Virus record (IMG/VR): IMGVR_UViG_3300030060_001275
Span: 1 to 52,681 of that record
DNA: 52,681 nt
Source of the DNA: a virus
Taxonomy: Duplodnaviria; Caudoviricetes
Direction: 5' to 3' (one strand)
This document shows positions 8,319-52,096 of this stretch, piece after piece (the first letter of the stretch is position 1; each line of letters opens with the position of its first letter). The notes under the pieces were generated by a model. That model saw only the letters and a program-made list of their open reading frames with translations, was not told where the DNA came from and ran no database searches. Made by a program: the position numbers and the translations under genes.

Positions 8319-8391
8319 TCTGGGGCTAACGGTTGCCGAAGGGCGTTAGGTAGCCAGTAGTATTATATCACTTTTTACGTGATGATTTCAA
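8319..8391 (-). promoter_or_regulatory. Scaffold promoter and leader hairpin
   Basis: TTGAAA-N18-TATAAT with extended TG (8391-8362), then hairpin CTGG-CTAC-CTAACG...CGTTAG-CC-CCAG just before the SD. Confidence 0.55.
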
Positions 8392-10221
8392 TGCACGTTT
8401 AGTTTGTTCTTGTACTGCTCCGCCTTTGGAGAATGGTGATGAAAACGTATCTTTGCTACTACCTGTTCCACTTAAATCATCTCTTGATTCACCTCTCGTA
8501 GTTCCTGCACCACTTCTCTCTTCTTGCCTATCTTGAGCTTCTTGCCTGTCGCGCTCAGCTTGAACTGCTGATTGAGAAGTTGGTGTATCATCAGCTGGTG
8601 TACTGATGCTAACGTCAATGCCTTTAGCCCCTTTTGTTGATATTTGTGTTGCGGCTAACGACGATCTTCTTGATGCTTCTGCTGGAGTTAATGTGGTTTT
8701 TCCTTTAACTACTCCCCCACCCGGAGTAACCGTGTAATCAATTCCTCCAATCTTTACATCGACAGAATCTCTTTCTCCTGTGGTTACTTTTTCTACATAT
8801 TGCGGAATAGCTCCTAATTTAATAAGTTCTTTTGTTTCATCTCTTGATATGTTTAACTCTTTAGAAAGAGTGTCGTAAAAATCGCTTTTCTTTATTGTAG
8901 TATTGATACCAGTTGCAACAGCACCTACTGGACCACCGACTTTAGCTAAAGCTTTCACGTGATCTATTAATGTTGCATTTGGCCCAAGTTGTGATCGTGG
9001 ATCGAGTTTCCAAGCTTCGCTTAATTCTGTGCCTAATCCCAATGATTTTTCTAACTCCACCATTGCAATTGTTTCATAAGAGTCAAATGCTATTTGATCA
9101 GATCTGTCCTGTTGCCCTTTAGATTTTTCATCTCCATCTCCACCTGTAGGTTGTGTTACAGTGGGTTGTGTAATTTTAGGGGCTTTCTGTTCTTCTGGTT
9201 TATATACTTTGTATCCTGATGGAATTTCTTGCTGTGGCTTGCCATCAATAAACATAATAGTAATTAGCTCACCATTAGGACCAATGTACTGTCTTTGTTC
9301 CGTAGTAGGTACTTTTCCTGTGCCAGCAGCCTGAGCAGGACGAGAAATAAACTGAGAGTAATTAGGGAGTGGTGCTTGTGGAATACCGGGAACCTGATAT
9401 CCACCTTGTTGCTGGGAAGGCGGCATGTAACCATAGCTAAATTGTTGAGGTGCAGGTTGGCCCGGAATTAAAGCTCCTTGCTGTGCATAAACAATTCCGC
9501 CCTCATTAAACTCCATAGTTGATGGGTCATTAGGATCAAACTCATCAATCATAGAGTCTATATCTACTTCCATTTCTGCTGTATCAGACATAGTAGCCTC
9601 ATCAGAATTGCCCATCTGCCCCATAGCTTCCATTTGTGCAAGACCTTGTTTAGCTTTATTACGCAACTGCATCAAATTTTCTAAACCAATATAGCGTGTT
9701 ACATCTGCTGGAAATACAAACTCTCCTTCACTAAGTTGTGCAGGAATATCATCTCTGACTTCTTTTTGGGTAGAGCCTACAGGTACAGCATTTCCAGATA
9801 CAGGATCAACTGTGCCACCTTCATCTTGAAGACCACCTTCTGCAAATCCACCAGCTTTTGATAGTCTAAGATATAACTTTTCAGCTTCTTCTAGCGTAAG
9901 TTCTCCCGCCCGAATTTTTAGTTTAATTTTTTCAACTACAGCTTTACTTGCCGCATCTTTATCTTCTTCTGTAATTTTATTTGCTTTTGTTGCTTTATCC
10001 AGTTCTAAAAAAGCAGAAGTCTTAGCATCTTCCAACGACATATCTTTTCTATCTCGAATACTTTGTTTAATTTTTTCTGCTTCTTCATCAGACATATTAC
10101 CCCTGCTAATGCTTACACTTTCTCCAGCCGCATCTTTTTTAATTGTCATATCTCCAATTGTGGATAGGCCGCCCTTGTCAAACATTTGCATTTGATCTTC
10201 AGTTTTCTTTTTTCTAGCCAT
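8368..10221 (-). CDS. Head-module protein with DDIPAQLSEGEFV domain and several FxxGG motifs (candidate processing protein)
   Basis: 617 aa between portal and scaffold; contains FDKGG, FAEGG, FNEGG, FSKGG and DDIPAQLSEGEFVFPADVTRYIG. Confidence 0.6.
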   Translation of the reverse strand: MARKKKTEDQMQMFDKGGLSTIGDMTIKKDAAGESVSISRGNMSDEEAEKIKQSIRDRKDMSLEDAKTSAFLELDKATKANKITEEDKDAASKAVVEKIKLKIRAGELTLEEAEKLYLRLSKAGGFAEGGLQDEGGTVDPVSGNAVPVGSTQKEVRDDIPAQLSEGEFVFPADVTRYIGLENLMQLRNKAKQGLAQMEAMGQMGNSDEATMSDTAEMEVDIDSMIDEFDPNDPSTMEFNEGGIVYAQQGALIPGQPAPQQFSYGYMPPSQQQGGYQVPGIPQAPLPNYSQFISRPAQAAGTGKVPTTEQRQYIGPNGELITIMFIDGKPQQEIPSGYKVYKPEEQKAPKITQPTVTQPTGGDGDEKSKGQQDRSDQIAFDSYETIAMVELEKSLGLGTELSEAWKLDPRSQLGPNATLIDHVKALAKVGGPVGAVATGINTTIKKSDFYDTLSKELNISRDETKELIKLGAIPQYVEKVTTGERDSVDVKIGGIDYTVTPGGGVVKGKTTLTPAEASRRSSLAATQISTKGAKGIDVSISTPADDTPTSQSAVQAERDRQEAQDRQEERSGAGTTRGESRDDLSGTGSSKDTFSSPFSKGGAVQEQTKRALKSSRKK

Positions 10222-12544: not shown

Positions 12545-14155
12545 TTAATATCCAAATGTAGAGTCTGAGGGAACATAAGAAGAAGGACTCTGATTAGTAG
12601 GATCAAAGTCCCAGATAGAAAATCTAGGTCTTGACATTATACCATAACGTAATGCATCGTATAAGTGATCTTCTGATTTAGTATCTACATCTTCTGGGTT
12701 TCTTTTATCTAATGGTATAACAGGCAATTGAGAAATAATATTTGTACAAGTATTAAAAAATATTATTCTTGGTTCTTCTGTGTATTCGTCAACTTGCAGC
12801 CTTCTGTGCATTTCATTTTTACCAGATACACGAGAACCCGCAGATCTATCTGATGGCCTCCATCTGCATCCTTTCATATTCATTTGTTCCGCCAAAGACG
12901 GCCCAGTATCACCTCGCTTATGCCAGCACGAACTGTCCAAAATTCCATATTTGATATTGTTATCTCCTGCTTCCATATCAATAACCATGTCTGCAAGATC
13001 AGTTGCCAACACTTTACTAACATACAACTCACGATAAACAATAAGCTGTTCAGAAGGTGATACAGCAATCCAAACAACAGCAGAGTAAGAACCATAACCA
13101 TAATCACAGGCGCGAAACTTAACCCAATTGCGAGGTATATCAAAAGGCTCCACAACATGTATTTCTCTGTTAAACTCAGTGAAAGCCGCGCCTTCTGCAA
13201 CATCCCAATTGCCTTCTAATAATTGTTTTCTTTGATGCTCAGGTAAAGACAAGAGCATTGCTTCATAATCCCCCTGCTCATATAAGTGGGGATTGTCTGT
13301 TAACATAGCAGGAATAAACCTGCGTTTAAATAAAGGTTGAAACTCTTTTGAGTGTCCCTTTGGATACATTAACACTTTACCGCTTGCAATATCAGTTGCA
13401 TTAAACGATTGACCCGGAGGCGCAGGATCTATAAACATCTTTTTAACCCATGCATGACCGGGACCACCGGGGTTAGTAGTAGCTCTCATATACACTGGTA
13501 AATCAGGTGCTGTGCTACGCAAACGTGATCTCATATAGTCCCATGCAAAGTTTGTATTCCATTGTGTTAGTTCATCAAACCCTATCCAACTAAAAGCTTG
13601 TCCTTGATATCTTAATACATCATCTGCTCGATCCAGATAAGAAAACCACAACCTTGCACCGGAAGGAGCAACCCACTGCATTTTTCTCTCTGACCATTTT
13701 ATTCCGGGCCAGATCTTTGGATACATCTCCTGAGACTTCCATACAAGCTCTCTAAGCTCTTCATTGGTATGTCGTAATAGCAACCCACTAAAGGAGGGAT
13801 GACCCATGAACCTGAGAGGATCTGCAAGCATTGCGTAAGATTTACCGCCACCTGCCGCACCTCCATAGAGAACTTCTCTTTCACCTGCTGCCAAGAACTC
13901 AGTTTGAGGACCAGCATTAGGTTTAAATATTACATTATGCTCTTCTTCAGGACGTATTGGCTCAAACTCGTTAGGCTCTTGGGGATCTGCCTTTACCTCA
14001 ATGTTGGGTAATGGCTGACTCTTCTTCCTTGCTGATCCTCGACTTCCTTGCGCCAAGCCTCGACCTTTCGATGGTTTCCGCTTTGGAGATCGCCGCTTCG
14101 TACCTTCTGGCCCATTCGCGGAGAGTTGCACTTCGTCTTTTGTGGGACTGCTCAC
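12545..14155 (-). CDS. terL: Terminase large subunit (start uncertain)
   Basis: Walker A GGAAGGGKS, Walker B IGFDE, ATTNPGG, nuclease DYG...DHLYDALRY. Confidence 0.93.
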   Translation of the reverse strand: MSSPTKDEVQLSANGPEGTKRRSPKRKPSKGRGLAQGSRGSARKKSQPLPNIEVKADPQEPNEFEPIRPEEEHNVIFKPNAGPQTEFLAAGEREVLYGGAAGGGKSYAMLADPLRFMGHPSFSGLLLRHTNEELRELVWKSQEMYPKIWPGIKWSERKMQWVAPSGARLWFSYLDRADDVLRYQGQAFSWIGFDELTQWNTNFAWDYMRSRLRSTAPDLPVYMRATTNPGGPGHAWVKKMFIDPAPPGQSFNATDIASGKVLMYPKGHSKEFQPLFKRRFIPAMLTDNPHLYEQGDYEAMLLSLPEHQRKQLLEGNWDVAEGAAFTEFNREIHVVEPFDIPRNWVKFRACDYGYGSYSAVVWIAVSPSEQLIVYRELYVSKVLATDLADMVIDMEAGDNNIKYGILDSSCWHKRGDTGPSLAEQMNMKGCRWRPSDRSAGSRVSGKNEMHRRLQVDEYTEEPRIIFFNTCTNIISQLPVIPLDKRNPEDVDTKSEDHLYDALRYGIMSRPRFSIWDFDPTNQSPSSYVPSDSTFGY

Positions 14156-14453
14156 TATCTATACGCTTTTTTAAACCCATGTGAGAAATGCTACGCCCTG
14201 TCTGTTTAGTCAGCCAGTTTGCAACTTCTCTATAACTATATTGTTGTAAATACTCTTTTGCTTTTTCTAGTGCTCTTAACTCTCTAGGCACAGGAGAAAG
14301 CATATCCTTATCCTCTGGATCTTCTATATAACCAAAAGGAATAGTACGAGCTATTCTTGGAATACTAAGAAAATCTTCATCTTCTATAGTATTTTTAGGT
14401 TGTGGTAATATCCACTTACCCGTTGATCTACTAGCTGTCATTTTCCTCTTCAC
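13998..14453 (-). CDS. Putative DNA-binding protein (recombinase-like HTH)
   Basis: IPFGY...SYREVANWLT...ISHMGL motifs; lies between TerS and TerL. Confidence 0.55.
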   Translation of the reverse strand: MKRKMTASRSTGKWILPQPKNTIEDEDFLSIPRIARTIPFGYIEDPEDKDMLSPVPRELRALEKAKEYLQQYSYREVANWLTKQTGRSISHMGLKKRIDSEQSHKRRSATLREWARRYEAAISKAETIERSRLGARKSRISKEEESAITQH

Positions 14454-14802
14454 GTTTTGGTGGTAATATCATTACACCGCCCGTTGTTTCTACTTGAAGT
14501 TTTTCAGATTTAATAATACCAACACGATCCATAACTTCTTTAGCAGCTTGCATTTTTTCTTTAATGCCTAGTTCAGTAGGATCACGTAACGCACCTACCA
14601 TAGCCATAGCCGCACGAGGGGCTGACTGTGCTAAATACATATTAGTGCGTTCTAGTATTTCATCTTTTAGAGATTCAACGATTCCTGCTGTATGTTGCGT
14701 AGGTGAATATCCAGCTAATTTCTTAGCTTCTACCATACTACCTCGTGCCTCTTCAAAGAGTACATCTAAAAACTTTTGTTGTTTCTCTGTTAGCTTACGC
14801 AT
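14431..14802 (-). CDS. Terminase small subunit (putative)
   Basis: LTEKQQKFL...AKKLAGYS HTH-like start; upstream of TerL. Confidence 0.65.
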   Translation of the reverse strand: MRKLTEKQQKFLDVLFEEARGSMVEAKKLAGYSPTQHTAGIVESLKDEILERTNMYLAQSAPRAAMAMVGALRDPTELGIKEKMQAAKEVMDRVGIIKSEKLQVETTGGVMILPPKREEENDS

Positions 14803-14945
14803 TATGTATACTTCTTACTTTTCCGTTTTGTGCCATCTGCTCTTGCTATTAAACCTCTAGCTTTAGCAGATGCCCGTTCTGTAAATCCTAATTTTTTACC
14901 TGCTTTAATTTTAGCACGTAATGTAGATAATTTAGGCTTTGGCAT
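14802..14945 (-). CDS. 47-aa basic protein (not in ORF track)
   Basis: MPKPKLSTLRAKIKAGKKLGFTERASAKARGLIARADGTKRKSKKYT; its stop overlaps the TerS ATG (TAATG). Confidence 0.7.
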   Translation of the reverse strand: MPKPKLSTLRAKIKAGKKLGFTERASAKARGLIARADGTKRKSKKYT

Positions 14946-15222
14946 CTCGTTGTCTTTTCAATTGCTCTTTTGCTTTTTTAGCTAATTTAGCTTGCTCATG
15001 TTTACCAGCAACTTTGGCTCGTTGCTCTAGCACAGTTAATATCTGTATCTTTCTGGCGTATGGCTTACTAATTTTTTTAACTTTTGTAATAGTTTTTTTA
15101 GCGTCAGCCACAGTAGCGTAAGCAATTGAAACAGTGTCTTTAGGATTTTCATCCGTGTATAATCGTCTTCCGCTACCTTTTGGTTTTTTACCTGTTCCTT
15201 TTGCGGGATCTTTTTTTGTCAC
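14932..15222 (-). CDS. Basic hypothetical protein
   Basis: 96 aa, Lys-rich, RRLYTDENPKDTV motif; tightly packed with neighbours. Confidence 0.7.
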   Translation of the reverse strand: MTKKDPAKGTGKKPKGSGRRLYTDENPKDTVSIAYATVADAKKTITKVKKISKPYARKIQILTVLEQRAKVAGKHEQAKLAKKAKEQLKRQRDAKA

Positions 15223-15325
15223 GAACTACTCCAGCTAAAGTTTTTGCTTGACTTGCATGTGTTTTTGAAGCTTTTTGCAGCCCTTTCATTACTTTTTTAA
15301 TTTTTGCTACGTGTTTAACTGCCAT
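15188..15325 (-). CDS. 45-aa basic protein (not in ORF track)
   Basis: MAVKHVAKIKKVMKGLQKASKTHASQAKTLAGVVRDKKRSRKRNR; ATG directly follows the upstream stop. Confidence 0.65.
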   Translation of the reverse strand: MAVKHVAKIKKVMKGLQKASKTHASQAKTLAGVVRDKKRSRKRNR

Positions 15326-15577
15326 TTAACGATACCTTGCTGTCTTTTTTGCTATTTTTTTAGGCTGTTTTGCAAACTGTTTGCCCGATGCCTTTGCTTT
15401 CCGCTTGGCTTTGGTAGTTGCGGCATATTCTTTGGACGAGAGCGCACGGATAGCCGCTGATGGCAGATAACGCTCCCCAGTGGCCTTTGACCCTTGCGTA
15501 GAAGGCTTTCCTGATTTCGTTCGCCACTTCTGCTTCGTCCAATCTTTTAAACTCTTTTGAGACTTTTTGAGTGCCAT
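15326..15577 (-). CDS. Basic protein (DUF5872-like)
   Basis: SLKDWTKQKWRTKSGKPS...GERYLP motif; family recognised from memory. Confidence 0.65.
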   Translation of the reverse strand: MALKKSQKSLKDWTKQKWRTKSGKPSTQGSKATGERYLPSAAIRALSSKEYAATTKAKRKAKASGKQFAKQPKKIAKKTARYR

Positions 15578-15906
15578 CAGCTTTTGTAACCTCCTCCTGC
15601 TTTTTTATAAGCGGCGGCAAGCATCTGGGCTTTCCGTGCACTCCATTGACCGGATGCTCCACCTTTGCTGCCAGACTTAATGCGGTTAAAGATCCGTTTC
15701 CGTAGGCCGGGTTTGGTATAATTGCCAGCTTCATTGACTCTACTCTTAGGTTTACCTCCCGTTGACATTTTATTAACAGAAGGTTTTGTTTTACCAGCTT
15801 TGGATAAAGCAATTGCCACAGCTTGTTTTTGAGGTTTGCCTTTTTTTATTTCCGTTTTAATATTTTTAGAAATTGTTTTGGAGGATTTACCTCTTTTAAG
15901 CGGCAT
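15577..15906 (-). CDS. Basic protein with WSARKAQ motif
   Basis: 109 aa, Lys-rich; NYTKP.LR...GQWSARKAQ...YKKAGGGY; contains KMSTGGK. Confidence 0.7.
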
Positions 15907-16312
15907 TGCTCTTTTCCTCTTCTTCTCTACTATTCCAGTATTCTACACCATAATCATGTGTTATTTCTGTTCCTTTACGTATGTCCTTTAACGCCACAAA
16001 AACAATTAAGTTTTCATTGTTTTCATCTGCACACCACTCAGCGTTTGGATCGTCAGAGTGATTGTAAAGCATGGCATAGCCTAAAGGAGCAATCATACGT
16101 GAATCATTCGTAAAAGGTGTACCGAACATATAATCCTGTAACACGGATGTGGCTTCTACGTCATCATCTTCTATACTAAGAAAAGGACAGTATTCAATTA
16201 CGTCCCCTTTTTTTATAGGAAAAGAAGCGTATACACCAAATCCGTGTATTTCAGATTCTTTTACGTATATGCTGAGCAATGACTTACTTCTTCTTAGTGG
16301 ACATTCCGCCAC
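15896..16312 (-). CDS. SET-domain protein-lysine methyltransferase
   Basis: SET motifs [10 protein letters not shown]...[28 protein letters not shown]; true start may be the TTG near 16279. Confidence 0.9.
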
Positions 16313-16478
16313 GCATCATTTTCTTTTTAGCCATTTTAGACATGCCGCCACCAGCCATTTTTTTCTTCTTAGCCATTTTAGCCATGCCACCACCCATCAT
16401 TTTTTTCTTCATGGGCATACCACCGCCACGCATCATTTTTTTCTTGGCAGTCTTTACTTTACCTTTATGTCCCGGCAT
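16284..16478 (-). CDS. 64-aa K/M/G low-complexity peptide
   Basis: Four KKKMxxGG repeats; fills the gap between neighbours in an operon-like arrangement. Confidence 0.7.
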   Translation of the reverse strand: MPGHKGKVKTAKKKMMRGGGMPMKKKMMGGGMAKMAKKKKMAGGGMSKMAKKKMMRGGMSTKKK

Positions 16479-17001
16479 TTCGTAATCCTCTTCTGTATAG
16501 AACTAAACTTTCATATGTATCTTTCGGAAAGTGTTTATAGTAACCACTCTTCTCCAGACTTAATGCTGCATCATCTAGAACAGATAGACGTTGAACAAAA
16601 ACCATAGCGTAATCAAGTTCTGAGTCTTCTAAACACTCTACTTCTTCTAGAAAATCCAACCCTGCTTCTAAAGGACTGTAGTCTGGATGAAATAACATTA
16701 AATGTAAATCTGTTCCAACTACTGACAGTGCTTCATTAATACCATCACAAAAGCCATCAAGGTACTCCATTTCTGGATATTCTTCATCAGCCCAGATAAC
16801 GATATCGAAATTATGAGTATCGTACTTTTGTATTTCTTCAACTAACCCATCTAAACCTGTGTTAATTGAAAACTTTACTTGATTATCCAACCATGCTTTT
16901 TTTGCATAAGGGCATGGAGGTAATCCGTTTAGTTTGTCACAAGGTACTTCTAAAAACTCTTGTGACCACTTTCGTATTTCATCTTCGATGTCAGACATCA
17001 A
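16465..17001 (-). CDS. Acidic hypothetical protein (DUF1415-like)
   Basis: PCPYAKKAW and FHPD motifs. Confidence 0.55.
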   Translation of the reverse strand: MMSDIEDEIRKWSQEFLEVPCDKLNGLPPCPYAKKAWLDNQVKFSINTGLDGLVEEIQKYDTHNFDIVIWADEEYPEMEYLDGFCDGINEALSVVGTDLHLMLFHPDYSPLEAGLDFLEEVECLEDSELDYAMVFVQRLSVLDDAALSLEKSGYYKHFPKDTYESLVLYRRGLRNAGT

Positions 17002-17356
17002 AGCCCATTTTACGAACAGCCTGTCTTCCTTTTGGAGACTGAGCCAACTTTTTTAATCCTTTATTAGGCAGATTATCTACAACAGCACCTCCCCCTACAT
17101 ACATGTGTGGGGTTCTTTTACCGCCAGCCATACCGCCTTCTTTCATCTTTGGGCTACCTAATGCACCTCTAACTCTCTGAAGATTTTCTTTAGCTGCCTC
17201 AAGTCTATCTTGCAAATTTTTTGATGGGCTTCCGGGATTATCACGCATACGAGCTTCTAACATTAAAACTTCTGTTTCATATTCTCGCAATTCATTTTCT
17301 AACCTAGATTTTAAATCTGCTCCAACTTGTTCTGGTGTCATATTAATTTCAGCCAT
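16991..17356 (-). CDS. Hypothetical protein with MKEGG / YVGGG motifs
   Basis: 121 aa ORF, translationally coupled to neighbours. Confidence 0.65.
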   Translation of the reverse strand: MAEINMTPEQVGADLKSRLENELREYETEVLMLEARMRDNPGSPSKNLQDRLEAAKENLQRVRGALGSPKMKEGGMAGGKRTPHMYVGGGAVVDNLPNKGLKKLAQSPKGRQAVRKMGFDV

Positions 17357-17937
17357 TATTTCTTTAACTCCGTGGTATATTTTTTACCATTCCAAGTAAA
17401 AGTTTTATTTCCTTTGTTACGAAAATGTCTAAATGCTTCTTTAAAAGAAACACCTCCTCTAGATACTCCTACATTGTAATTTTTCTTTTCTTGTTTTTTT
17501 GTTGAATCTTTTGAGGAACGTGGGACTGCTTTGCCCGGAGAACCTCTTAAACGACCAGATGCAGGATTAGGTGGTGACCCAGTTCTAGCTTTCTTTTTTG
17601 CTTTTTGTATCTGCTTGCTTCTAATCGAACGCAACGCATTTTCTGTTGCATCCGTAAGTTCAACTGCTGTGTAAACAATACCCAATGGCCCTAAAAATCT
17701 TGCACCAACACGAGCCGCAGGAGATAATTTTTTAGCCATAGCTTTAATTTTAGCCATACTTCCCTCCCCTTTAACTTTCGGGGAATCACCTACACGATCT
17801 TTTGCGTATTCCTTAACGTCTTTTTGTAAACCCTTGAGATCTTTTGCTTTTAGTTTTGGAGTTTTTTGTGCGGTTGTGAGCTTAGGCTCCTTTTTGGTTT
17901 TTTTAGCAGATTTATTTCTTTCATTGGGGGATGCCAT
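17356..17937 (-). CDS. Basic hypothetical protein
   Basis: 193 aa; C-terminal SFKEAF...KTFTWNGKKYTT motif. Confidence 0.65.
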   Translation of the reverse strand: MASPNERNKSAKKTKKEPKLTTAQKTPKLKAKDLKGLQKDVKEYAKDRVGDSPKVKGEGSMAKIKAMAKKLSPAARVGARFLGPLGIVYTAVELTDATENALRSIRSKQIQKAKKKARTGSPPNPASGRLRGSPGKAVPRSSKDSTKKQEKKNYNVGVSRGGVSFKEAFRHFRNKGNKTFTWNGKKYTTELKK

Positions 17938-17943
17938 TTTAAA

Positions 17944-18201
17944 TTAACTCCTAAGATTTTTCTTACCCGCAGTCTTAGTACGAGCAAAAGAACGATTAAC
18001 AGATTTAGGCGCAACACCTAAGTGTTTATTATTAAGAGGATTACCAGTTAGATGTGTTACATCCTTATTGTCCCCCTTACGTACAAGACCAGCCTTAGCC
18101 ATCTTAGTACGTGCGGCATTACGAGATGCCCTAGCTACCTTCTGCTTAGGTTTGCTGTGGTAGTTCTTATATTCTTTTTTGTAGTTACGAGTAACAGCCA
18201 T
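17944..18201 (-). CDS. Small HNH-like protein
   Basis: RNYKKEY...RN.AR...GDNKDVTH...N...NR pattern of small phage HNH proteins. Confidence 0.55.
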   Translation of the reverse strand: MAVTRNYKKEYKNYHSKPKQKVARASRNAARTKMAKAGLVRKGDNKDVTHLTGNPLNNKHLGVAPKSVNRSFARTKTAGKKNLRS

Positions 18202-18716
18202 TACTTACGTGACATCCTGTTAGGAGGTACTGACGCACCTGCTTTAGCTTTTATTGTACCACCTTTGTTAAGGTTTGTCTTGCTGACAACACGGCGATTT
18301 TCTTTAATAGTTTGACCGCCTTCAGGAGACTTACGACTAGCAGTGCTTGCAGGCTTAGTATCAGCACGGCTTTCGGTGACTTTATTAATAGAATCAACCA
18401 AAGCGTCAATCCCCAATGCTCCAACAGCACCTGCTCCCAATCCTTGGACTCTTCCTTTAGTAATCCCAGCCTCTGCTGCTTTTTTAGCAATCCGTTTAGC
18501 CAATGTTTGAGATGTTGTGCCCTTTTTAACAAGTTGACTAATCGGCATTCCAGTCTTATCACTAATTACAATACCTCGTTTTGCGGCATCTAGTGCGGCA
18601 TTGACTTCTTTTTCGGATGCTTTTGGTTGTACCTTCTGCAATCCTTTTTTTGCGGCGGCTCGACTGCCTGCTTTGAGCAATCGGACTGCGCTCATAATTA
18701 AATTAATTCCAGCCAT
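18201..18716 (-). CDS. Basic hypothetical protein with LNKGG motif
   Basis: 171 aa; Gly/Ala hydrophobic stretch; coupled to the next gene. Confidence 0.6.
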   Translation of the reverse strand: MAGINLIMSAVRLLKAGSRAAAKKGLQKVQPKASEKEVNAALDAAKRGIVISDKTGMPISQLVKKGTTSQTLAKRIAKKAAEAGITKGRVQGLGAGAVGALGIDALVDSINKVTESRADTKPASTASRKSPEGGQTIKENRRVVSKTNLNKGGTIKAKAGASVPPNRMSRK

Positions 18717-18724
18717 AATCTATA

Positions 18725-19009
18725 TCACCATTTTGTACACGACCAGTATCTGGCTGTGAATTTATCTTTAGCTGTATCACACTTATGCCGAGCACGAAAT
18801 GACTTACGTCTTTCTGGGTTATCCTTCTTGATCTCCATATTTGGATCACCAAAACGGACTATTTTAACCTGATCACCTTTCTTGGCAAGCACAGCAAACT
18901 TTTTATTTGAGCCGGGAGTACGCTTAGGCTTATTGTAGCCACTGAAAGTTTCACCACGATAAGTAATTCTTCCACTTTCAGTGCGTTTTACATCTTTAGT
19001 TGTCGCCAT
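18725..19009 (-). CDS. Basic conserved phage protein
   Basis: IVRFGDP...RRKSFRARHKC...ARYWSC motif. Confidence 0.7.
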   Translation of the reverse strand: MATTKDVKRTESGRITYRGETFSGYNKPKRTPGSNKKFAVLAKKGDQVKIVRFGDPNMEIKKDNPERRKSFRARHKCDTAKDKFTARYWSCTKW

Positions 19010-19214
19010 CAGTCCAACCAGCTTCTTTCATGTATTCCTCTACCTGAGACAAAGAAAGCTCGGACTTAAAACGAGCTTCTAACGCTTCACGCACAAAGAA
19101 TACATCTGAGTGCGGTATGTGAATGCTACTTAAAGGAGTGTTATTACGAATACAATCGTAAACACTCTCTATTAGTCCCTCTCTTGTGTTAATTTTTACT
19201 TTATTATTATACAT
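18996..19214 (-). CDS. Hypothetical protein, first gene of the late arm
   Basis: 72 aa, HIPHSDVFFVR; overlaps the next gene. Confidence 0.55.
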   Translation of the reverse strand: MYNNKVKINTREGLIESVYDCIRNNTPLSSIHIPHSDVFFVREALEARFKSELSLSQVEEYMKEAGWTDGDN

Positions 19215-19243
19215 AGTTATATCTACGTAGTTACAAATGTCAA
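19214..19243 (-). promoter_or_regulatory. Promoter TTGACA-N16-TATAACTA
   Basis: TTGACA at 19243-19238, TATAAC at 19221-19216. Confidence 0.75.
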
Positions 19244-19459
19244 GTATTTCTAATAAAATGAAAACATTTTAGTGAAGTGCATACAGATTGGAGCACTGGG
19301 GGAGTGTTTATTGGAGTTTAGCACAGATATTACTGTTATGCAAAACTTATTTTAGTGTCTACATATAAGTGTACATTTAAATGCTACACTTTAAGTGTCT
19401 TTAACAAGAAAATTTCTTTTAGTTTTTGTGTTTTCTTCTTTTCTAATGTTTCACATTAG

Positions 19460-19489
19460 TAGTTATATCCAGAAAATAAATCTTGTCAA
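19460..19489 (-). promoter_or_regulatory. Promoter TTGACA-N16-TATAACTA
   Basis: TTGACA at 19489-19484, TATAAC at 19467-19462. Confidence 0.75.
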
Positions 19490-19532
19490 GTAGTATTTTA
19501 AGTATTTCAGTTATAAATGCACCCGATTTTAA

Positions 19533-19576
19533 ATATGTTACTTATGGTAACACTATATGTTACTCATAGTAACTGT
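19533..19576. repeat. Tandem palindromic boxes ATATGTTAC-N5-GTAAC, 22-bp period
   Basis: GTTACttatgGTAAC at 19537-19551 and GTTACtcataGTAAC at 19559-19573. Confidence 0.65.
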
Positions 19577-19753
19577 ATGTTTCTTATAACCTGTAGGGCA
19601 TTTATAAATGAAAGGGCATTTAGAGTGGTTTACAAGCCATTTTTACGAATTTTGGCAGTGTGTGTACATATATACGCAGTACGGGGGGGTGGCCCACGCC
19701 TGCCCCACGAAAAAAAAATGATCGTATGCGCTGGCCTGAGAAAAAATAAAAGA

Positions 19754-19766
19754 TAAGTTATTGATT
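19754..19766. promoter_or_regulatory. IHF consensus site
   Basis: TAAGTTATTGATT matches YAANNNNTTGATW, with flanking A-tracts. Confidence 0.45.
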
Positions 19767-19974
19767 TATAAAGAAAAAATAATATATGCAAGTGTTATAT
19801 AGTCACTTGATACTATTTATAGCTTGCACGATTGGCGGAAAATAAAAATTGATCGCGCTGTTTTTGGTTGTGGATATTTTACTACATCTATTCAATTACT
19901 ATGCACACTATACCCTAAACAAGTTGGCACGGTTATTGCTACGCGCGCGTTCCTTATTACGCGAAAAAAAAAGC

Positions 19975-19997
19975 ATGCGTAAAAATTTTTTACACAT
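19975..19997. repeat. 23-bp quasi-palindrome, copy 1
   Basis: ATGCGTAAAAATTTTTTACACAT. Confidence 0.95.
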
Positions 19998-20019
19998 AAC
20001 ACTAATTAAAGATAGAGGG

Positions 20020-20049
20020 TTGACGGTCGAACAAATGATATGTTAAGCT
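20020..20049 (+). promoter_or_regulatory. Putative early sigma70 promoter
   Basis: TTGACG-N18-TAAGCT with extended TG, upstream of the first early gene. Confidence 0.5.
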
Positions 20050-20098
20050 TCTATACATGGTGCTATTTCGTACTTTTACTAAATGAAGGTGAATAATT

Positions 20099-20926
20099 AT
20101 GAATACTCAAATATCAAACATTGCTCTCGACTACACTATTAATCCTGAAAAATTTGCGGACCGTTTTCTTGGTTCTCGAAGAACTACCGATGATTTCGGG
20201 CAAGTTGTTGGCAATGTTTCAGAAACAGAAACAATATCTGAGTTTGATACTGCTGATATTAAAGATGGGCAAAAAAATATTCCGCCTGCTCGCAAACCCA
20301 AAGGTAAATCTAAGCGCGCTGGAATGGGTAAAAAAGTTAATCTTGAACAGTTATTAGCCGCGCCAGTATCGCGCACGAGTGAGCAGACCGTTGAGGAATT
20401 AGCAGAAGAAATAAAGACAATACACGCGCAAATGCTCAAAGGCCAATACGAACAGATAAAGGCTTTCTCTGAAATGGGGATGCGATTCAACAAAATTCGT
20501 AAAGCTGTAATGATTGAAAAGGACTTTGATGACCCTAAAAAGGCGGATTCCGAATTCGGAAAAAAATTGACTCTTTTAGGAATTGGCGTTAATTTTATCG
20601 ACCGGACAACTCGGCGCTCTTATGTCGCGCTAGCCGGTAAACTTACTCAGGCGAAATCCTTTGTAACCAAAGCCGTCAATGCATACGCGAAAGATCCCAA
20701 AGGCGCGGATAAAATCACCAAAAAAATAGCAACTAATTATGCTAGGCTGACATTGACTGCGCCAGTTGTAGTCAAAGAAATGGGTCTCTTAGGTTCGACC
20801 GAAGCCAAACCTAAGGCTGATACGCTCGCGAAAATTGTCGAGAATGTGCAGAATCGCGTTGAAAAGCTCGAAGATGTTTCAATTGCTCAAGTAATCGAAG
20901 CACTACAAAAAATTAACCAAGTCTAA
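20099..20926 (+). CDS. First early gene, unknown function
   Basis: 275 aa ORF with GAAGGTG SD, own promoter and terminator. Confidence 0.75.
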   Translation: MNTQISNIALDYTINPEKFADRFLGSRRTTDDFGQVVGNVSETETISEFDTADIKDGQKNIPPARKPKGKSKRAGMGKKVNLEQLLAAPVSRTSEQTVEELAEEIKTIHAQMLKGQYEQIKAFSEMGMRFNKIRKAVMIEKDFDDPKKADSEFGKKLTLLGIGVNFIDRTTRRSYVALAGKLTQAKSFVTKAVNAYAKDPKGADKITKKIATNYARLTLTAPVVVKEMGLLGSTEAKPKADTLAKIVENVQNRVEKLEDVSIAQVIEALQKINQV

Positions 20927-40689: not shown

Positions 40690-40785
40690 TTATATGAGAG
40701 AAACTGCTACGGTAGTTTTCCCTCCGCTGTTTGATCTCACCCTCACAGCAAAGAGTACAAGCCCCTCGCAATGAGGGGTTTTTTT
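40690..40785 (+). ncRNA. Candidate ~95-nt small RNA
   Basis: Own promoter; stem with c(UACG)g tetraloop; GCTGT/ACAGC stem with a CU-rich loop; terminator GCCCCTC-GCAAT-GAGGGG followed by T7. Confidence 0.55.
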
Positions 40786-43700
40786 ATGTGCGTGACATTA
40801 ATCCGCCACGATTCATATCGTTTGATTTAGTCGCAGTAATTAAATCGCCTTTGCTCTGAACATTACCTTCACCAAACACTTCCTCTACACGAGATACATA
40901 GGCACTGGTAGGCTCGTTTCTTTGGTAGCCTTTAGAAGTTGTCTTTCCTTTTCCTGACTTGTCGCCTGCATAAACTGTAAAGTACGCCTTATCACCGGGC
41001 TTGATTGCATTCTCAGCCTGTTGAATAACACGTTTAATGTTTTTGGGTTCTTTAATTACGTTTAATGTATTATTTGATACAGCAACATCAGCACCACCAT
41101 CTGCAACTAATTCTTTAACAACATTGTTGTGATCAGGTGTGCGATTAAATGGATCGTATACTTGTAGCTCAACGTCTTGCTTTGCTAAATCTTCAACTGC
41201 ATTATCAAAACGACCACCACCAATATCTACAACACGTTGACCGGGCTGAAATACTCCCATCTTTTTAAGTTTAGTATACCCAGCAGGTAACTTGCTTTGG
41301 TTAATAGACGTATCAGCAGACGTTACCTTCTGTGTAGGAACGTCCCATAACTCATCTGCATACTTAGATATAGCTTTGACACCTGTCTTTGCGCCTCTAG
41401 CAACCATACCAACACCCGGCACTGCACCTAACGCACCCAATGTCGCCATGCCATAGTCACCTTTTTCAAAGTCTTCTACGGCGGCTTGTGCTGAACGTAT
41501 CTCACCAGTTACAGGTGCGAGGTCAAGACCTAATCCAACCATTTGACGGGTAGTTTCATCTTCTATCTGTTCTTCAGGTTTGATCAGTCCACCTACAAGA
41601 CCACCAGAGTTAAACTGCTTTGTTTTGTATGCTTCTCCTCTCATTAAATACTCAGAGTAATCAGATTTGCTACTAGGAGCACCAAGCTGTTCGTTAATTA
41701 GAGCTCTAACTTCAGAACTAACTTCATTCTCATATTTGAATTTATATATGTCGTTAAGCGTGTAGCCAAACTCTAACTTTATCATTTCTGGAGTAGCACC
41801 GGGATTGCTATCCATAAAATCCTTTACAGGAGGAATTAACAATTCATTTATTACTCTAGAAGATGTTTTACGTACTTCTTCTCTTGCAATAGTTTTAAAT
41901 TCTACAATCTTTTGCTTGTCCGTCATCTTCTGATAGGCATCTCTTTTGATTAGATCATCTAAAACAGGAGTTAATCTTTGAGATACTTCTTGTCTGATTT
42001 TTACATCGGCAGGACCAAATCTAAATCTGCGATATACTTGATATGGTCTAATCTGAAGTCTGTTAGCTTCTTTTTCTACAGCAGTTGCATTCTCAGAAAT
42101 ATTAAGACCAGAAGTCATGGTAGCAATAGGGTTAACTTTTCTTGCTGGTGTTTCCCTCATTATGCTAAATCTAGGCTCTATTTCCTCATAATCAAATCCA
42201 AGACGAGAAAGGCCACTACGGAACGGTCCAAGAGAACGCCCAGCCTTAGCAAACATAATATCCCACGTAGATACTTCTTTGCCTGTTTCTGGTATGAGTC
42301 GCAGTTGCTCATCAGTTAAAGAGTACAAATCTTTAGCTACACTAAGTGGCATCATTAATGTATAAGTATTAAGATAATTTCCTGCTATTTCACCCATAAT
42401 TTGTTTAAACTTTAGTGTGCCTTCCGCCTCTGTGCCTTTAAACGCACCTGCTATCGATGGTAGTGCTTCATTAATAAGTTGAAGTCCACTACCCGCCCTC
42501 ATGGAAGAACCAACTGCTGTCTGTATTAAATCCTGAGAAATACCTACTACATCTGGTTGAGGTTCACCTTTGATCATTTTAAGTGCTGTGTCAGCAAGAT
42601 ATAACTCTAAGTTCATCGGCCCTAAAAAAGGACGCAGATCCTTAGTTCCCTCTTCTCCTATTATCCCTTCCACGTTATACCAAAGTGTTCCGGGATCTTG
42701 TGTATTACGCAGTGCCATAAAAGCACCGACCATACTGAATCCACTAGCCTGCTGTGCAATTCGTTTGGCAACAGAACGCCCAACATAATTTTTACCCGCC
42801 CCAAATCTTTCAAGTGGGATGGCACCAACAATAGGAGCATGTTCATACATAAACTGTATTTGATTGATTACAAAGCGAGGGAAAGGAATAAGCAAACCGG
42901 AAACAAATCCAGCTTCCTTGTCCATTTTTAACCATCCCCTAGCGGCTTGTCCAAATATACCAGTGTCAGCTTTAGGTGTTTTTTGATAGACCATTTCAAA
43001 GGCTTTGTCCATTGCTTGATTAAACAGCTTTGGATTAATCTGATTGAACTTTCCTTCTTTAATAATTTCTATTAGATCTTTGCCTGTGTCTTGTTTTACA
43101 AGTCTACTTAACTCACCTGAAAATGCAGCCTTCTTAAAAAAGTTATCTGACATTTTATTAAAAACATTAAATATATTTCCTATGGACTCAAGTTTTGTTG
43201 GGCTTCCCCCTGCTATTTTTGTAGTCCCGACACCTGCATCAATAAAACTAGAGAAGAATCTTTCATATCCCTCTTTGTCAATGTTCCTATAAAGATCAGC
43301 AATTAGATCTGCCTCTGGCGTGTCTAAAATATATTTAATCATTTCACTAGATTTAAACACAGATCTTTCTTTTATTGGTGTCGCTCCTGCTACACGCGGA
43401 GTAAGTCTATTGTAAAAATATGTAGTGCTTGTCTCAACAGCTTCCTCAAACATATCTAATCCAATACGAGAAGCACCACCAAATACGTTACGCAAAGTAG
43501 TAACAGGCTGAGAAGTCATAATAGAACGGCGAATTCTTTCAAACCCATTTAAATTTTCTTTTAAATTTTGTATGGTTGATTCTTTAATGGCTTCTTTTTG
43601 CAACTTTATGCCGACATCTATGCCCAAGTTCTCCCCAGCCTCAGTAGCAGTTTTAGCTATGCGTTCAATATTAAGAATATTTTTTTCGTTTATAGTTCTC

Positions 43701-44908
43701 TGAGCGCGTAATAATCTAGCGGCATCAGACACAGAAGACAGCATCATATGCTTGACATGCTTTCCATTAAGATTGTACTTGAGCATAATCTCACTATACA
43801 AATCGTCAGCTATGCCATTTTTAGAAAACGCATTGGCAAAATCTTCCGATATTCTTTTTCCGGGTGTTCTAGGTATAACATCGGAAAATTCAAGAAATGC
43901 GGCTTGCATTCTTTTAAACTCTTGGGGAGTAAAAGACAAACGAAACTCAGGATCTATGTTCTCTGCAATATCTGAAAATAATTGATCACCAATTGCTGTG
44001 CTTTCTGGGTCTAGCGGATCAAGCTTTGCATCTTTTTTAGTCGCCTTCTGTGCATCTTTTAGGGCACCCTTCAGAGTCTTACGAACAAGCTTTGTCTCTT
44101 TTTTAGTCGCCTTTTTTGCATCTACTATTTTATCTAATGATCCTAGTGCGTCCTTTACTTCTTTAACTTTTTTAGAATCGGCATTTTTAATTACTTTTTC
44201 TGCTTCAGTAAGAGCTACGCTATCAAGTGCTTCTGCCGCTTCCTCTCCCTGCGCTTTCAGTATGTCAGCCTGCTGTGACTTTTTTCCTAGTCTTAAAGCA
44301 TTAAATCCACCGAAAGTGACACCGGGAATAGCAGATGCAGCAGTGGTTAAGGCAAATTCTTTACCACTAAAGTCTCTCTCTGGGTCTAATTCCATTCGTG
44401 TGCCTTGCTGTGCCACGTTCTGCCCAGCACCAATAACACCCTCCGTTATACCTGCTCTTAGGGCACCCTTCAGAGTCTTACGAACAAGTAATTTAGTAGC
44501 TGATTGCCCTGCTATAGAGGCTACCTTGCCACTTCCCCCTGTAAGTATCCCTAACCAAGTGGATGGTGCAGTGGCAATACCTGTGGTGTAATCTACGGCC
44601 TTATCTACAAAATCTTCTGTGCTCATTTCCGATTTGTCGTAGACATCAAAAAGACGACCCATCTCAGCTTTGCTTTCTTCATCAGCTTCTTGGGCGTACA
44701 AAAGATCACTAATAGTAGAAACTTCGTTCACATCGTGATATCTCATACGCTGTTGAAATTCTTCGTATATCTCATCGGGATCTGTTAGGTCTAGCTCCCC
44801 TTTACTGCTTTTATACAAATAGTTTGCGGCATCGTCTAAAAAATCTTCATTAACAACCAGATTTTCCCTATTGATATCTTTAGAAGCTAGATAATTGTAA
44901 CTTTTCAT
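40784..44908 (-). CDS. Large internal virion (ejection) protein with C-terminal pre-toxin-like segment and SAM-dependent methyltransferase domain
   Basis: 1374 aa, last gene of the virion block; C-terminus contains VVDIGGG, VYDPFN, SNNTLNVI, AYFTVY, GYQRN. Confidence 0.75.
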   Translation of the reverse strand: MKSYNYLASKDINRENLVVNEDFLDDAANYLYKSSKGELDLTDPDEIYEEFQQRMRYHDVNEVSTISDLLYAQEADEESKAEMGRLFDVYDKSEMSTEDFVDKAVDYTTGIATAPSTWLGILTGGSGKVASIAGQSATKLLVRKTLKGALRAGITEGVIGAGQNVAQQGTRMELDPERDFSGKEFALTTAASAIPGVTFGGFNALRLGKKSQQADILKAQGEEAAEALDSVALTEAEKVIKNADSKKVKEVKDALGSLDKIVDAKKATKKETKLVRKTLKGALKDAQKATKKDAKLDPLDPESTAIGDQLFSDIAENIDPEFRLSFTPQEFKRMQAAFLEFSDVIPRTPGKRISEDFANAFSKNGIADDLYSEIMLKYNLNGKHVKHMMLSSVSDAARLLRAQRTINEKNILNIERIAKTATEAGENLGIDVGIKLQKEAIKESTIQNLKENLNGFERIRRSIMTSQPVTTLRNVFGGASRIGLDMFEEAVETSTTYFYNRLTPRVAGATPIKERSVFKSSEMIKYILDTPEADLIADLYRNIDKEGYERFFSSFIDAGVGTTKIAGGSPTKLESIGNIFNVFNKMSDNFFKKAAFSGELSRLVKQDTGKDLIEIIKEGKFNQINPKLFNQAMDKAFEMVYQKTPKADTGIFGQAARGWLKMDKEAGFVSGLLIPFPRFVINQIQFMYEHAPIVGAIPLERFGAGKNYVGRSVAKRIAQQASGFSMVGAFMALRNTQDPGTLWYNVEGIIGEEGTKDLRPFLGPMNLELYLADTALKMIKGEPQPDVVGISQDLIQTAVGSSMRAGSGLQLINEALPSIAGAFKGTEAEGTLKFKQIMGEIAGNYLNTYTLMMPLSVAKDLYSLTDEQLRLIPETGKEVSTWDIMFAKAGRSLGPFRSGLSRLGFDYEEIEPRFSIMRETPARKVNPIATMTSGLNISENATAVEKEANRLQIRPYQVYRRFRFGPADVKIRQEVSQRLTPVLDDLIKRDAYQKMTDKQKIVEFKTIAREEVRKTSSRVINELLIPPVKDFMDSNPGATPEMIKLEFGYTLNDIYKFKYENEVSSEVRALINEQLGAPSSKSDYSEYLMRGEAYKTKQFNSGGLVGGLIKPEEQIEDETTRQMVGLGLDLAPVTGEIRSAQAAVEDFEKGDYGMATLGALGAVPGVGMVARGAKTGVKAISKYADELWDVPTQKVTSADTSINQSKLPAGYTKLKKMGVFQPGQRVVDIGGGRFDNAVEDLAKQDVELQVYDPFNRTPDHNNVVKELVADGGADVAVSNNTLNVIKEPKNIKRVIQQAENAIKPGDKAYFTVYAGDKSGKGKTTSKGYQRNEPTSAYVSRVEEVFGEGNVQSKGDLITATKSNDMNRGGLMSRT

Positions 44909-50802: not shown

Positions 50803-51008
50803 TATGATGCCTGTGATATAAGGGCAACTACTGCTCCTAATACTGCAATTACATTAAGCATGACCATTGCTTCAAGTCTCCATAATCTTTTATCTAAACT
50901 ATTTAACTTATCATGCACATAACTATATCTAATAGCACACTCAGCTTCATGTTTTTCTAACTGAAGTTTTGTTTCCATTTCTAAACTAGGCTCTTGCTTT
51001 AATTTCAT
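50802..51008 (-). CDS. Small coiled-coil + TM protein
   Basis: HEAECAIRY...L..LE followed by a hydrophobic tail. Confidence 0.65.
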   Translation of the reverse strand: MKLKQEPSLEMETKLQLEKHEAECAIRYSYVHDKLNSLDKRLWRLEAMVMLNVIAVLGAVVALISQAS

Positions 51009-52096
51009 TATGCCGCTACATCCTCACGCATTTTAATTGGATTGGATGGTGATCTATCCAACCACTTACCCCACTCAGCATAGTAATGACGCATTCCTAC
51101 TTCATCGTGTATAGTTTCATTTTCATGTCTAGCATGAAGAATATTTCTTTTTTCTGTACCTTCACGCATGGTTGTGCCCTGACCAGATACACCAATCAGA
51201 TCCTCGTGCAGATTACGTCCGAATGGACCCCATATTGAATTGTGATGTTTGATACGAGTTTGTCTTTCTTTTTCTGTGTCTTTTTTAAGTCCGTATCCAC
51301 GAAACTCAATTAATACTTTATTTGGTCCAAGAGGTGTTACACTGTCTGAACGGTATGCACTACCACGTAGGTTAAAGTTAAAGCCGGGAAACAGATCTAC
51401 CATGTACCACTGATTAGGTGGCAAGTTAGGGAAGCTAAGTTCCCCTCTATCTTCAAATCCCTCATACTCTTCGTAATTCACAGTGAATGAACTTACGTTA
51501 ACATGCCCGTTATCAAACGGAATATTCTTACGTGCAAAATACTCTTCATTAAATCCACTGACTCTATTAAAGTAGTGCATAAAATCGTGATAAAACTCAC
51601 TGTTGGTATCATGCCAAAGTTTATAGTTAGTATCTATAATAGATTTATGATAATGGAATACTTCCATTTCTTCTGAATCAATTGCATCTGCAATACAGTC
51701 AAATGCACCTGCTGTCCATTCTTCTACACTCATAATAGGATTAGGGTCAAGGGTGACCCAAACCATACCGCCATGCTTAACTTCGCAATAAAGTTCACTT
51801 TTACCTAAAATATTTTTAATAGGCACTTTTCCTGCTGGTCCTGTGTATCGTGAATCGTTGTACACAGCCCTAACATCAGTTCCAGTATTAATAACAGCTA
51901 TATTTTTAAATGCAATTTGCGATGTTCTGTAGCTTCCTATATCTGACATTTCACTTATATGACAAACAGGAACCCATACTTTAGAAAAAATGTTTTCAAT
52001 TTCTTCATCAAATATCTGTTGATTGTTGTAACACTCACTACTGATATGTTCTATCTTTGGTGTCTTATTCCACTGTTTATAATTACGTGCTGGCAT
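51008..52096 (-). CDS. msmA: Methanesulfonate monooxygenase alpha subunit-like ring-hydroxylating oxygenase, lacking Rieske ligands
   Basis: EIENIFSKVWVPVCH.SE, TNYKLWHDTNSEFYHDFMH, LFPG, NLHED, DEVGMRHYY.EW; no CxH...CxxH motif. Confidence 0.75.
   Translation of the reverse strand: MPARNYKQWNKTPKIEHISSECYNNQQIFDEEIENIFSKVWVPVCHISEMSDIGSYRTSQIAFKNIAVINTGTDVRAVYNDSRYTGPAGKVPIKNILGKSELYCEVKHGGMVWVTLDPNPIMSVEEWTAGAFDCIADAIDSEEMEVFHYHKSIIDTNYKLWHDTNSEFYHDFMHYFNRVSGFNEEYFARKNIPFDNGHVNVSSFTVNYEEYEGFEDRGELSFPNLPPNQWYMVDLFPGFNFNLRGSAYRSDSVTPLGPNKVLIEFRGYGLKKDTEKERQTRIKHHNSIWGPFGRNLHEDLIGVSGQGTTMREGTEKRNILHARHENETIHDEVGMRHYYAEWGKWLDRSPSNPIKMREDVAA

Follow-up and report, generated by a model that had tools for sequence, protein, structure and literature searches.

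A minimal SET-domain gene of HMO-2011-type marine phages and its probable sharing with the SAR116 lineage

Why should a tailed phage carry a gene for a SET-domain protein-lysine methyltransferase, and which protein would such an enzyme modify? The question is raised by a viral record of 52,681 bases, IMGVR_UViG_3300030060_001275 of IMG/VR (the whole stretch is called the window here), in which a SET-domain gene, referred to below as SET, lies among small lysine-rich genes next to the terminase genes. An original prediction, made from the letters of this DNA, had linked the two and proposed that the phage's own basic proteins, likened to histone tails, may be regulated by lysine methylation. 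The reading that we prefer, and to which we give a probability of about one half, is that SET encodes an active lysine methyltransferase that is shared with the host lineage and acts mainly on a basic host protein; it is drawn from the ancestry of the gene and from the behavior of other phage modifying enzymes. The gene itself is located as follows.

15896..16312, minus strand: minimal SET-domain lysine methyltransferase gene, an open reading frame (ORF) of 138 amino acids (aa) that matches Pfam SET PF00856

The Pfam match of this ORF has an E-value of 3.8e-18 (66.3 bits against a cut-off of 22.4), and a six-frame search of the genome scores it at 66.6 bits. Three motifs can be read in the product, HGFGV (GxG), YNHSDDPNA (NHSxxPN) and EITHDYG (ExxxxY, with the catalytic Tyr), which we take to serve S-adenosylmethionine (SAM) binding and catalysis. 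In an alignment of 30 homologues at 28-83% identity, residues G24, N84, H85, S86, Y121 and G122 are invariant, and the intact domain with GxG, NHSxxPN and EITHDY described in the original prediction is thereby confirmed, by the family match as well as by conservation of its motifs. The true start of the gene is probably a TTG at position 16279, 5 nt past the stop of the upstream peptide, because relatives begin with ML(N/K)I at that point; the product would then be 127 aa long.

An AlphaFold2 model built on the 30-sequence alignment has a mean pLDDT (predicted local distance difference test score) of 82. When this model was compared with known structures by Foldseek, PFL0690c, vSET and Set7 of S. 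pombe came out on top (E 2.5e-10 to 4.7e-9), and 392 matches reached E <= 0.001, all those listed being SET-domain enzymes. In sequence comparison, vSET of PBCV-1 comes first among proteins of solved structure (E 3.9e-15), followed by a Plasmodium protein and by S. pombe Set7. Taken together, sequence and model indicate that SET is probably a minimal, active SAM-dependent protein-lysine methyltransferase. The notion that it is a decaying passenger, or a module that binds without catalysis, would agree with its patchy distribution and repeated loss among phages, and we consider it highly improbable, given that the catalytic residues are invariant over so wide a range of identity, that all 29 distinct phage copies listed read as open frames of 116-143 aa, and that as many as 438 relatives of the gene occur in IMG/VR.

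The comparison with vSET (A612L, PDB 1n3j/3kma) is instructive in two directions. Both are viral minimal SET proteins of about 120 aa that lack pre- and post-SET zinc modules; the structures match with a Foldseek E-value of 7.7e-10 and a TM-score of 0.85 normalised to vSET, and residues 6-114 of vSET align with residues 15-130 of the phage protein. In contrast, PBCV-1 is a virus of a eukaryotic alga and the target of its enzyme, according to the PDB molecule name, is K27 of histone H3, whereas the nearest relatives of the phage SET are bacterial. The likely alphaproteobacterial hosts of the phage would have no H3. The PBCV-1 virion contains vSET, which methylates host H3K27, and SET might by analogy be packaged in the phage particle, injected, and act at the onset of the next infection on host nucleoid or transcription proteins to shut down the host. 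Kinship with vSET and the position of SET in one block with packaging and structural genes both favor an injected effector of this kind. We nevertheless think it decidedly unlikely, as the sequence of SET has neither a capsid-targeting feature nor the x-x-Gly-Gly tag found in several of its neighbors (see below), and the gene is sister to a cellular gene of housekeeping type.

This cellular relative bears most directly on the origin of SET. Scanning one genome per prokaryotic species yielded 280 SET relatives, of which 80 loci were kept, and the 17 closest (44-51% identity) all come from metagenome-assembled genomes (MAGs) labeled Alphaproteobacteria, Puniceispirillaceae or SAR116. These SAR116/Puniceispirillales genes (loci L161-L175, L178 and L192) encode proteins of 122-136 aa, similar in length to the phage SET. 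The phage and SAR116 enzymes are both acidic, with isoelectric points (pI) of 4.1-4.5, and this acidity of both fits a basic substrate. They differ in that the SAR116 genes are cellular and occupy a conserved chromosomal neighborhood: the ORFs listed for six loci (L161, L162, L164, L170, L174 and L175) comprise a DctP-type solute receptor, a Gate-domain membrane protein and then SET, followed on its 3′ side by an acyltransferase, an S8 peptidase or a PfkB kinase. Pfam confirms these neighbors on the proteins of L161, L164 and L170, and the contigs belong to genomes of 1.5-2.2 Mb. Within 4 kb of SET, none of the 80 genome loci carries a gene of the phage cluster (0/80). SET was found in 33 of 81 sampled genomes of the order that contains SAR116.

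A SET tree was built from 29 phage sequences, 17 from SAR116 and 36 from other bacteria, these last taken from genome loci up to L215; in it the phage sequences form one clade (support 98/80) that joins the 17 SAR116 sequences at 100/98, with Solirubrobacterales next. We conclude from this topology that SET would have passed between these phages and the SAR116 lineage in a single exchange. The phage and SAR116 clades have in common 38 positions at which conservation is at least 80%, against only 3 with a consistent difference, all of them conservative changes; since the conserved positions have not diverged, the phage copy most simply does what the host enzyme does. According to the preferred reading, the phages would have retained SET after this exchange as an accessory gene that they can do without and have repeatedly lost; in the infected cell its product would methylate a basic substrate of the kind that the host enzyme acts on, most probably a host protein, with the phage's own Lys-rich proteins as possible secondary substrates.

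The distribution of SET among phages was followed by means of the conserved acidic gene that precedes it (16465-17001), which served as an anchor. An anchor scan of IMG/VR confirmed at least 576 stretches as relatives, of which the best 80 were kept. Loci with an anchor match shorter than 150 aa, and SET-negative loci reaching less than 1200 nt past the anchor, were then set aside, and the set compared here comprises 80 loci, the window included. SET is found in 35 of them and missing from 45, and in all 35 it starts 127-415 nt beyond the end of the acidic gene. Mapped onto a maximum-likelihood anchor tree, presence and absence of SET require 9 changes, of which well-supported branches force at least 7. 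When IMG/VR was scanned a second time, with the SET alignment, the 438 relatives mentioned above were obtained, and the 71 new loci among the best 80 were inspected. The anchor lies upstream of SET in 61 of these 71; in the other 10, SET is less than 250 nt from the start of the locus, where upstream sequence is lacking. The original prediction had named a sporadic position among relatives as one finding that would tell against it, and in the event it is the presence of SET that is sporadic (35/80), while its position is fixed.

Cultured phages yielded no SET, as a tblastn search of 50,697 phage records returned only one megaphage sequence (deposited twice) at 43% identity. The megaphage and locus L007 represent two unrelated viral contexts, and in both SET is found without basic neighbors. 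As read from gene content and phylogeny, then, SET is a common accessory gene in phages that is fixed in position, dispensable, and lost or replaced repeatedly. The stretch from the anchor to the terminase small subunit (TerS) gene varies in length from about 2.1 to 5.8 kb among loci, and in HMO-2011 it carries a gene annotated as methanesulfonate monooxygenase alpha subunit, which from its annotation alone we read as host-like; the slot may therefore be a place where accessory genes land. The HMO-2011 gene resembles SET in being an accessory gene in the same stretch, and differs in being metabolic, whereas SET is protein-modifying. The window has a ring-hydroxylating oxygenase alpha-subunit-like gene of its own at 51008-52096 (Pfam Ring_hydroxyl_A, E 7.7e-6), which resembles the HMO-2011 monooxygenase-annotated gene but lies at a different genome position.

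The genomic setting of SET has to be considered next to its ancestry. The window is the near-complete genome of an HMO-2011-type marine podophage, its virus record being rated 96% complete; its terminase large subunit (TerL) is 75% identical to the counterparts in Roseobacter phage CRP-345 and Puniceispirillum phage HMO-2011, and its portal protein matches the SU10-type family. The plus strand carries the genes from 20099 to about 40600, and the minus strand carries two runs of genes, one reaching from 19214 back to 510 and the other from the window end back to 40784. SET and the basic genes occupy the first 4.4 kb of the minus-strand block, with TerS, TerL, portal, scaffold-like, coat and tail genes downstream, and the region is best explained as the promoter-proximal part of a long block of packaging, structural and lysis genes in an uncultured HMO-2011-type podophage. 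The host of HMO-2011 is a SAR116 bacterium (HMO-2011 record), and on the anchor tree the acidic gene of the window sits in a well-supported group of 17 loci that includes HMO-2011; by this kinship a SAR116 host is likely for the window phage. A promoter and terminator scan of 13800-20300 found fewer promoter-like sites than in shuffled sequences and no notable internal minus-strand terminator, so that the timing of expression of the cluster can only be inferred. Among the sequencing runs listed as covering 14400-19300 there is no RNA run, and the DNA runs are labeled marine metagenome.

The genes of the region other than SET are listed here in the order of the minus strand. Several of their products contain a motif of the form hydrophobic-x-x-Gly-Gly, called the tag below.

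18996..19214, minus strand: first gene of the minus-strand block, acidic protein of 72 aa, pI 5.0, with a weak winged-helix match (Pfam HTH_33, E 6.5e-4, below cut-off)
18725..19009, minus strand: basic protein of 94 aa, phrog_7595 (1e-23)
18201..18716, minus strand: basic protein of 171 aa, pI 11.0, with an NLNKGG tag at residue 152 near the C-terminus; found in only 3 loci
17944..18201, minus strand: basic protein of 85 aa, pI 11.4, phrog_4590 (4.9e-10); found in 38 loci, both with and without SET
17356..17937, minus strand: basic protein of 193 aa, 20% Lys, pI 10.7, net charge +36; found in 4 loci
16991..17356, minus strand: protein of 121 aa with KMKEGGMAGG and HMYVGGG tags; found in 74 loci, relatives having two or three tags
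16465..17001, minus strand: conserved acidic protein of 178 aa (the anchor), phrog_28122 (6e-68)
16284..16478, minus strand: KKKMMRGG-repeat peptide of 64 aa, 33% Lys, pI 12, directly upstream of SET
15577..15906, minus strand: basic fusion protein of 109 aa, overlapping the 3′ end of SET by 11 nt
15326..15577, minus strand: basic protein of 83 aa, phrog_14910 (3e-36)
15188..15325, minus strand: basic module of 45 aa (KGLKKASK..HA.QAK), a 49-aa gene in locus L006
14932..15222, minus strand: basic protein of 96 aa, with only viral clusters in the protein atlas and a DUF5771 lead at 0.88
14802..14945, minus strand: basic protein of 47 aa, of a family found in 10 loci
14431..14802, minus strand: terminase small subunit, phrog_2538 (2e-5), Pfam Terminase_2 (2.2e-4), annotated in CRP-345 as putative terminase small subunit
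12545..14155, minus strand: terminase large subunit, the phage-type marker, Pfam Terminase_6N, 75% identical to CRP-345 and HMO-2011

Eleven very basic genes thus flank SET (pI 9.6-12.0, 9-33% Lys, net charge +5 to +36), with the one acidic gene of pI 4.2 at 16465-17001 among them, and throughout the cluster adjacent genes overlap by 1-35 nt or are separated by gaps of 0-8 nt. The tightly coupled, very basic small ORFs that the original prediction had placed upstream of the terminase are therefore present, two short ORFs that are conserved in relatives among them. The 45- and 47-aa ORFs fall below a 60-aa cut-off and are probably the two that the earlier ORF track had missed; we regard them as real because the 47-aa family recurs in 10 loci, with divergent members, and because the 45-aa module is found alone or fused. 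Two long open frames, 15360-15812 on the minus strand and 16149-16607 on the plus strand, overlap real small genes in other frames and would wrongly be picked by a length-based gene caller; they are probably a by-product of base skew (AT skew -0.32 in 14001-16000).

Most of these proteins are recognized by their relatives in phages, and an NCBIfam scan of ten cluster proteins gave nothing above cut-off. The 72-aa acidic family at 18996-19214 was found in 47 loci. Phage records with the 83-aa family number 17 and belong to HMO-2011-type phages, pelagiphages and OM43 phages. The 94-aa family is more widespread, with 174 phage records of many types by tblastn, and it also matches phrog_9979 (residues 173-257 of 278) and phrog_220, 'minor head protein and DNA pilot' (MuF-type). 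In Vibrio phage ICP1 the homologue is the C-terminal part of the capsid protease Gp125 (locus L087, 2482-3318). These fusions to head proteins point, indirectly, to the head interior as a place where the family may act, and no other member of the cluster offers such a pointer. What is alike is the sequence, matched in the C-terminal region of Gp125 and over part of a MuF-type family; what differs is that the 94-aa domain is a free-standing gene here, and its place in the head is putative. As to the acidic 178-aa protein, it has no Pfam or NCBIfam match, its AlphaFold2 model (pLDDT 74) finds nothing better than E 0.21 in Foldseek and a Z of 5.9 in VIA-align, below the stated noise level, and the protein atlas offers a DUF1415 lead only. 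It was considered as a cysteine protease for the tags, on account of invariant Cys30, His100/105 and Asp143, and nothing was found in support.

By their distribution the basic proteins are not tied to SET. We compared 56 loci that span the interval from anchor to TerS, 29 with SET and 27 without, counting families by means of per-family profiles; single-linkage clustering of all ORFs had merged the Lys-rich families through low-complexity matches and was discarded. The KKKMMRGG-like repeat peptide, 36-74 aa long with three to five units, directly follows the acidic gene in loci with SET and in loci without, was detected in 83 of 86 loci by profile search, and is kept after the anchor in HMO-2011 and CRP-345 too. 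All 29 SET-bearing loci have the core of the 109-aa protein (the 109-type core) and the 83-aa family, as do 17/27 SET-negative ones, and a comparison of tables showed that the ten SET-negative loci without them cluster on the anchor tree. Only the 96-aa family leans towards SET (20/29 versus 2/27; 15/21 versus 2/23 under stricter coverage), and here 4 independent pairs give a sign test p of 0.25. Tests of this kind for SET against the 96-aa, 47-aa and 109-type families had only 4 pairs and are underpowered.

Lysine content does not single out a substrate among these proteins either. Columns enriched in Lys in the SET-bearing orthologues were found, and the control genes, TerS and the acidic protein, show an equally strong Lys-for-Arg shift; covariation with lysine therefore singles out no substrate. 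Homologues of the 109-type core and of the 83-aa protein were not found in 5 SET-bearing SAR116 genomes, a search made in incomplete MAGs and without a positive control. The small basic modules are best explained as a shuffled mosaic that is at home in this phage group as in other marine phages, as far as their sequences tell.

One member of the mosaic, the 109-aa protein whose gene overlaps the 3′ end of SET by 11 nt, had drawn particular attention in the original prediction because it contains KMSTGGKPK, reminiscent of the histone H3 tail. The string is indeed there, at residues 46-54. Residues 1-42 of this protein form a module (phrog_2423) that is followed by a short junction and by a core at 51-108 (phrog_17747); in an alignment of the family the core is invariant and the N-terminus variable. 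The N-terminal module is a stand-alone gene in loci L025, L062 and L081, and the 45-aa module is fused ahead of the 109-type core in L014-L016, L048, L061 and L079. Modules that are separate genes in some loci, whether the 45-aa one or the N-terminal module of the 109-aa type, are elsewhere joined to the core by way of a Gly-Gly tag.

The core family has 62 distinct members, 45 of them extended at the N-terminus by 15 residues or more, and 34 of these 45 carry a hydrophobic-x-x-GG tag that ends no more than 8 residues from the core (16/20 with SET, 18/25 without). The remaining 17 are short forms that begin at the core and have no tag; they start where the tag ends in the long forms, which is compatible with a cut site or with a plain linker. 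Variants of the tag include SLSQGG, KLSTGG, NMAKGG and KLNKGG, the two closest homologues of the same architecture have KLAKGG and KLARGG, and the exact string KMSTGGK occurs once among the 62 distinct sequences. Aligning STGGK with H3 places Met47 at the position of K9, so that neither a Lys at K9 nor conservation of the string, as a mimic of the H3 tail would show, is found. When the 11 basic proteins are shuffled, 727 of 20000 shuffles (3.6%) contain a 5-residue match to the 9-residue H3 segment of the original prediction, before the post-hoc choice of the motif is taken into account. We accordingly read KMSTGGKPK, from these alignments, as a variant of the hydrophobic-x-x-Gly-Gly junction tag and not as a histone mimic. 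The original prediction had itself allowed that the H3 likeness might be a by-product of the GG tag, and with 34 of 45 homologues carrying the tag and the exact string present once, that caveat has proved apt.

The tag is in its own right more frequent than composition would predict: with the repeat peptide set aside, the ten remaining basic proteins show [ML]xxGG 4 times against 0.68 expected, and 20 of 5000 shuffles reach 4. A Lys stands directly ahead of the junction tag in 9/16 sequences from SET-bearing loci and in 1/18 from SET-negative loci, cases that on our reading of the sequences represent about three lineages. Three large structural-block proteins, encoded at 40784-44908, 46796-48847 and 8368-10221, have the same tag close to an end. 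The first has NDMNRGGLMSRT at its very C-terminus, the second MSMNTGGF at residues 50-70 and the third MFDKGGL at residues 10-20; the homologue of the third in a relative (locus L005, 8404-9942) opens with MFEDGGLMEEGG. The protein encoded at 40784-44908, 1374 aa long, also has a weak Methyltransf_23 match at residues of about 1192-1316 (E 5.6e-5, below cut-off), and in CRP-345 a separate class I SAM-dependent methyltransferase gene adjoins the homologous large gene. No protease for the tag was recognized among the window proteins scanned against families.

Adenovirus basic core proteins are cut at (M/I/L)-x-G-G by the viral protease. They and the phage proteins are alike in being very basic and in combining DNA packing, or the prospect of it, with a hydrophobic-x-Gly-Gly sequence, and the MRGG and MGGG of the repeat peptide fit that spacing. 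In contrast, most phage tags are one residue longer (hydrophobic-x-x-GG), no protease was recognized in the window, and cleavage at the tag is putative.

These observations bring us to the most serious alternative, which is close to the model of the original prediction: the Lys-rich neighbors would be DNA-associated proteins of the phage head, and SET would methylate them, either broadly or at the Lys that precedes x-x-GG, and so tune DNA binding or processing. SET is translationally coupled to a peptide with 33% Lys and overlaps the 109-aa gene, its position is constant in all 35 SET-bearing loci and in 61 of the 71 further ones, the 94-aa family recurs as a domain in the ICP1 capsid protease and in a MuF-type head family, and the tag recurs in large structural-block proteins; the lean of the 96-aa family towards SET and the Lys before the tag point the same way. 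There is a precedent as well, for in PMC3980110 the Go1-SET enzyme of Methanosarcina mazei is described as methylating MC1-alpha, a small basic protein associated with DNA in chromatin. Like the enzyme postulated here, Go1-SET is a prokaryotic SET protein that acts on a small basic protein, and it thus lends the model of the original prediction a parallel; it is, however, a cellular enzyme, whereas the link between the phage enzyme and its neighbors is putative. On the other side, the basic families exist without SET in 45 of 80 loci, and the history of SET includes at least 7 gains or losses. The excess of Lys in SET-bearing lineages is part of a general Lys-for-Arg shift that the controls share, the cases of Lys before the tag come from about three lineages only, the test on independent pairs has 4 pairs and a p of 0.25, and the STGGK string is not retained even in the nearest homologues. 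A structure prediction for a complex of SET, SAM and the 109-aa protein scored 0.01 against a mark of 0.32 and is evidence neither way. We regard methylation of the phage's own head proteins as possible, if somewhat unlikely.

As for the original proposal that SET and the basic proteins form a coupled system, it is difficult to sustain, since the basic families and the repeat peptide are kept where SET is missing, the gene has come or gone at least seven times, and its nearest relatives are chromosomal genes of SAR116. A bolder form of the same idea is that HMO-2011-type phages package modular Lys-rich core proteins, which are addressed or cut at the shared tag, much as adenovirus treats its basic core proteins, and which in a subset of these phages are methylated by a SET 'writer' acquired from the SAR116 lineage, the whole amounting to a rudimentary, modifiable phage chromatin; this we hold to be quite unlikely.

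The preferred reading, in which SET acts mainly on a basic host protein, has weaknesses that should be stated together. Its substrate is argued from ancestry and by analogy with other phage modifying enzymes. The gene is tightly coupled to Lys-rich genes and shares one transcription block with packaging and structural genes, not with obvious early takeover genes, a setting no less suited to a phage protein as substrate. SET is accompanied by the 109-type core and the 83-aa family in all 29 SET-bearing loci that span the region, the 96-aa family leans towards it, and the Lys before the tag is largely confined to sequences from SET-bearing loci. In addition, the direction of the exchange is left open by the tree because the phage and SAR116 clades are reciprocally monophyletic, and the host of the window phage is itself known by inference only.

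HMO-2011-type phages are described, in the abstract of PMC9038755, as a dominant and widely distributed marine viral group. In our literature search no paper joined 'HMO-2011' with 'SET domain', and the main text of the principal comparative paper on HMO-2011-type phages contains neither methyltransferase nor histone nor lysine, although its supplements may list the gene. If a large share of HMO-2011-type phages encode a protein-lysine methyltransferase in common with the SAR116 host lineage, this would be a non-metabolic, host-like gene in very abundant viruses.

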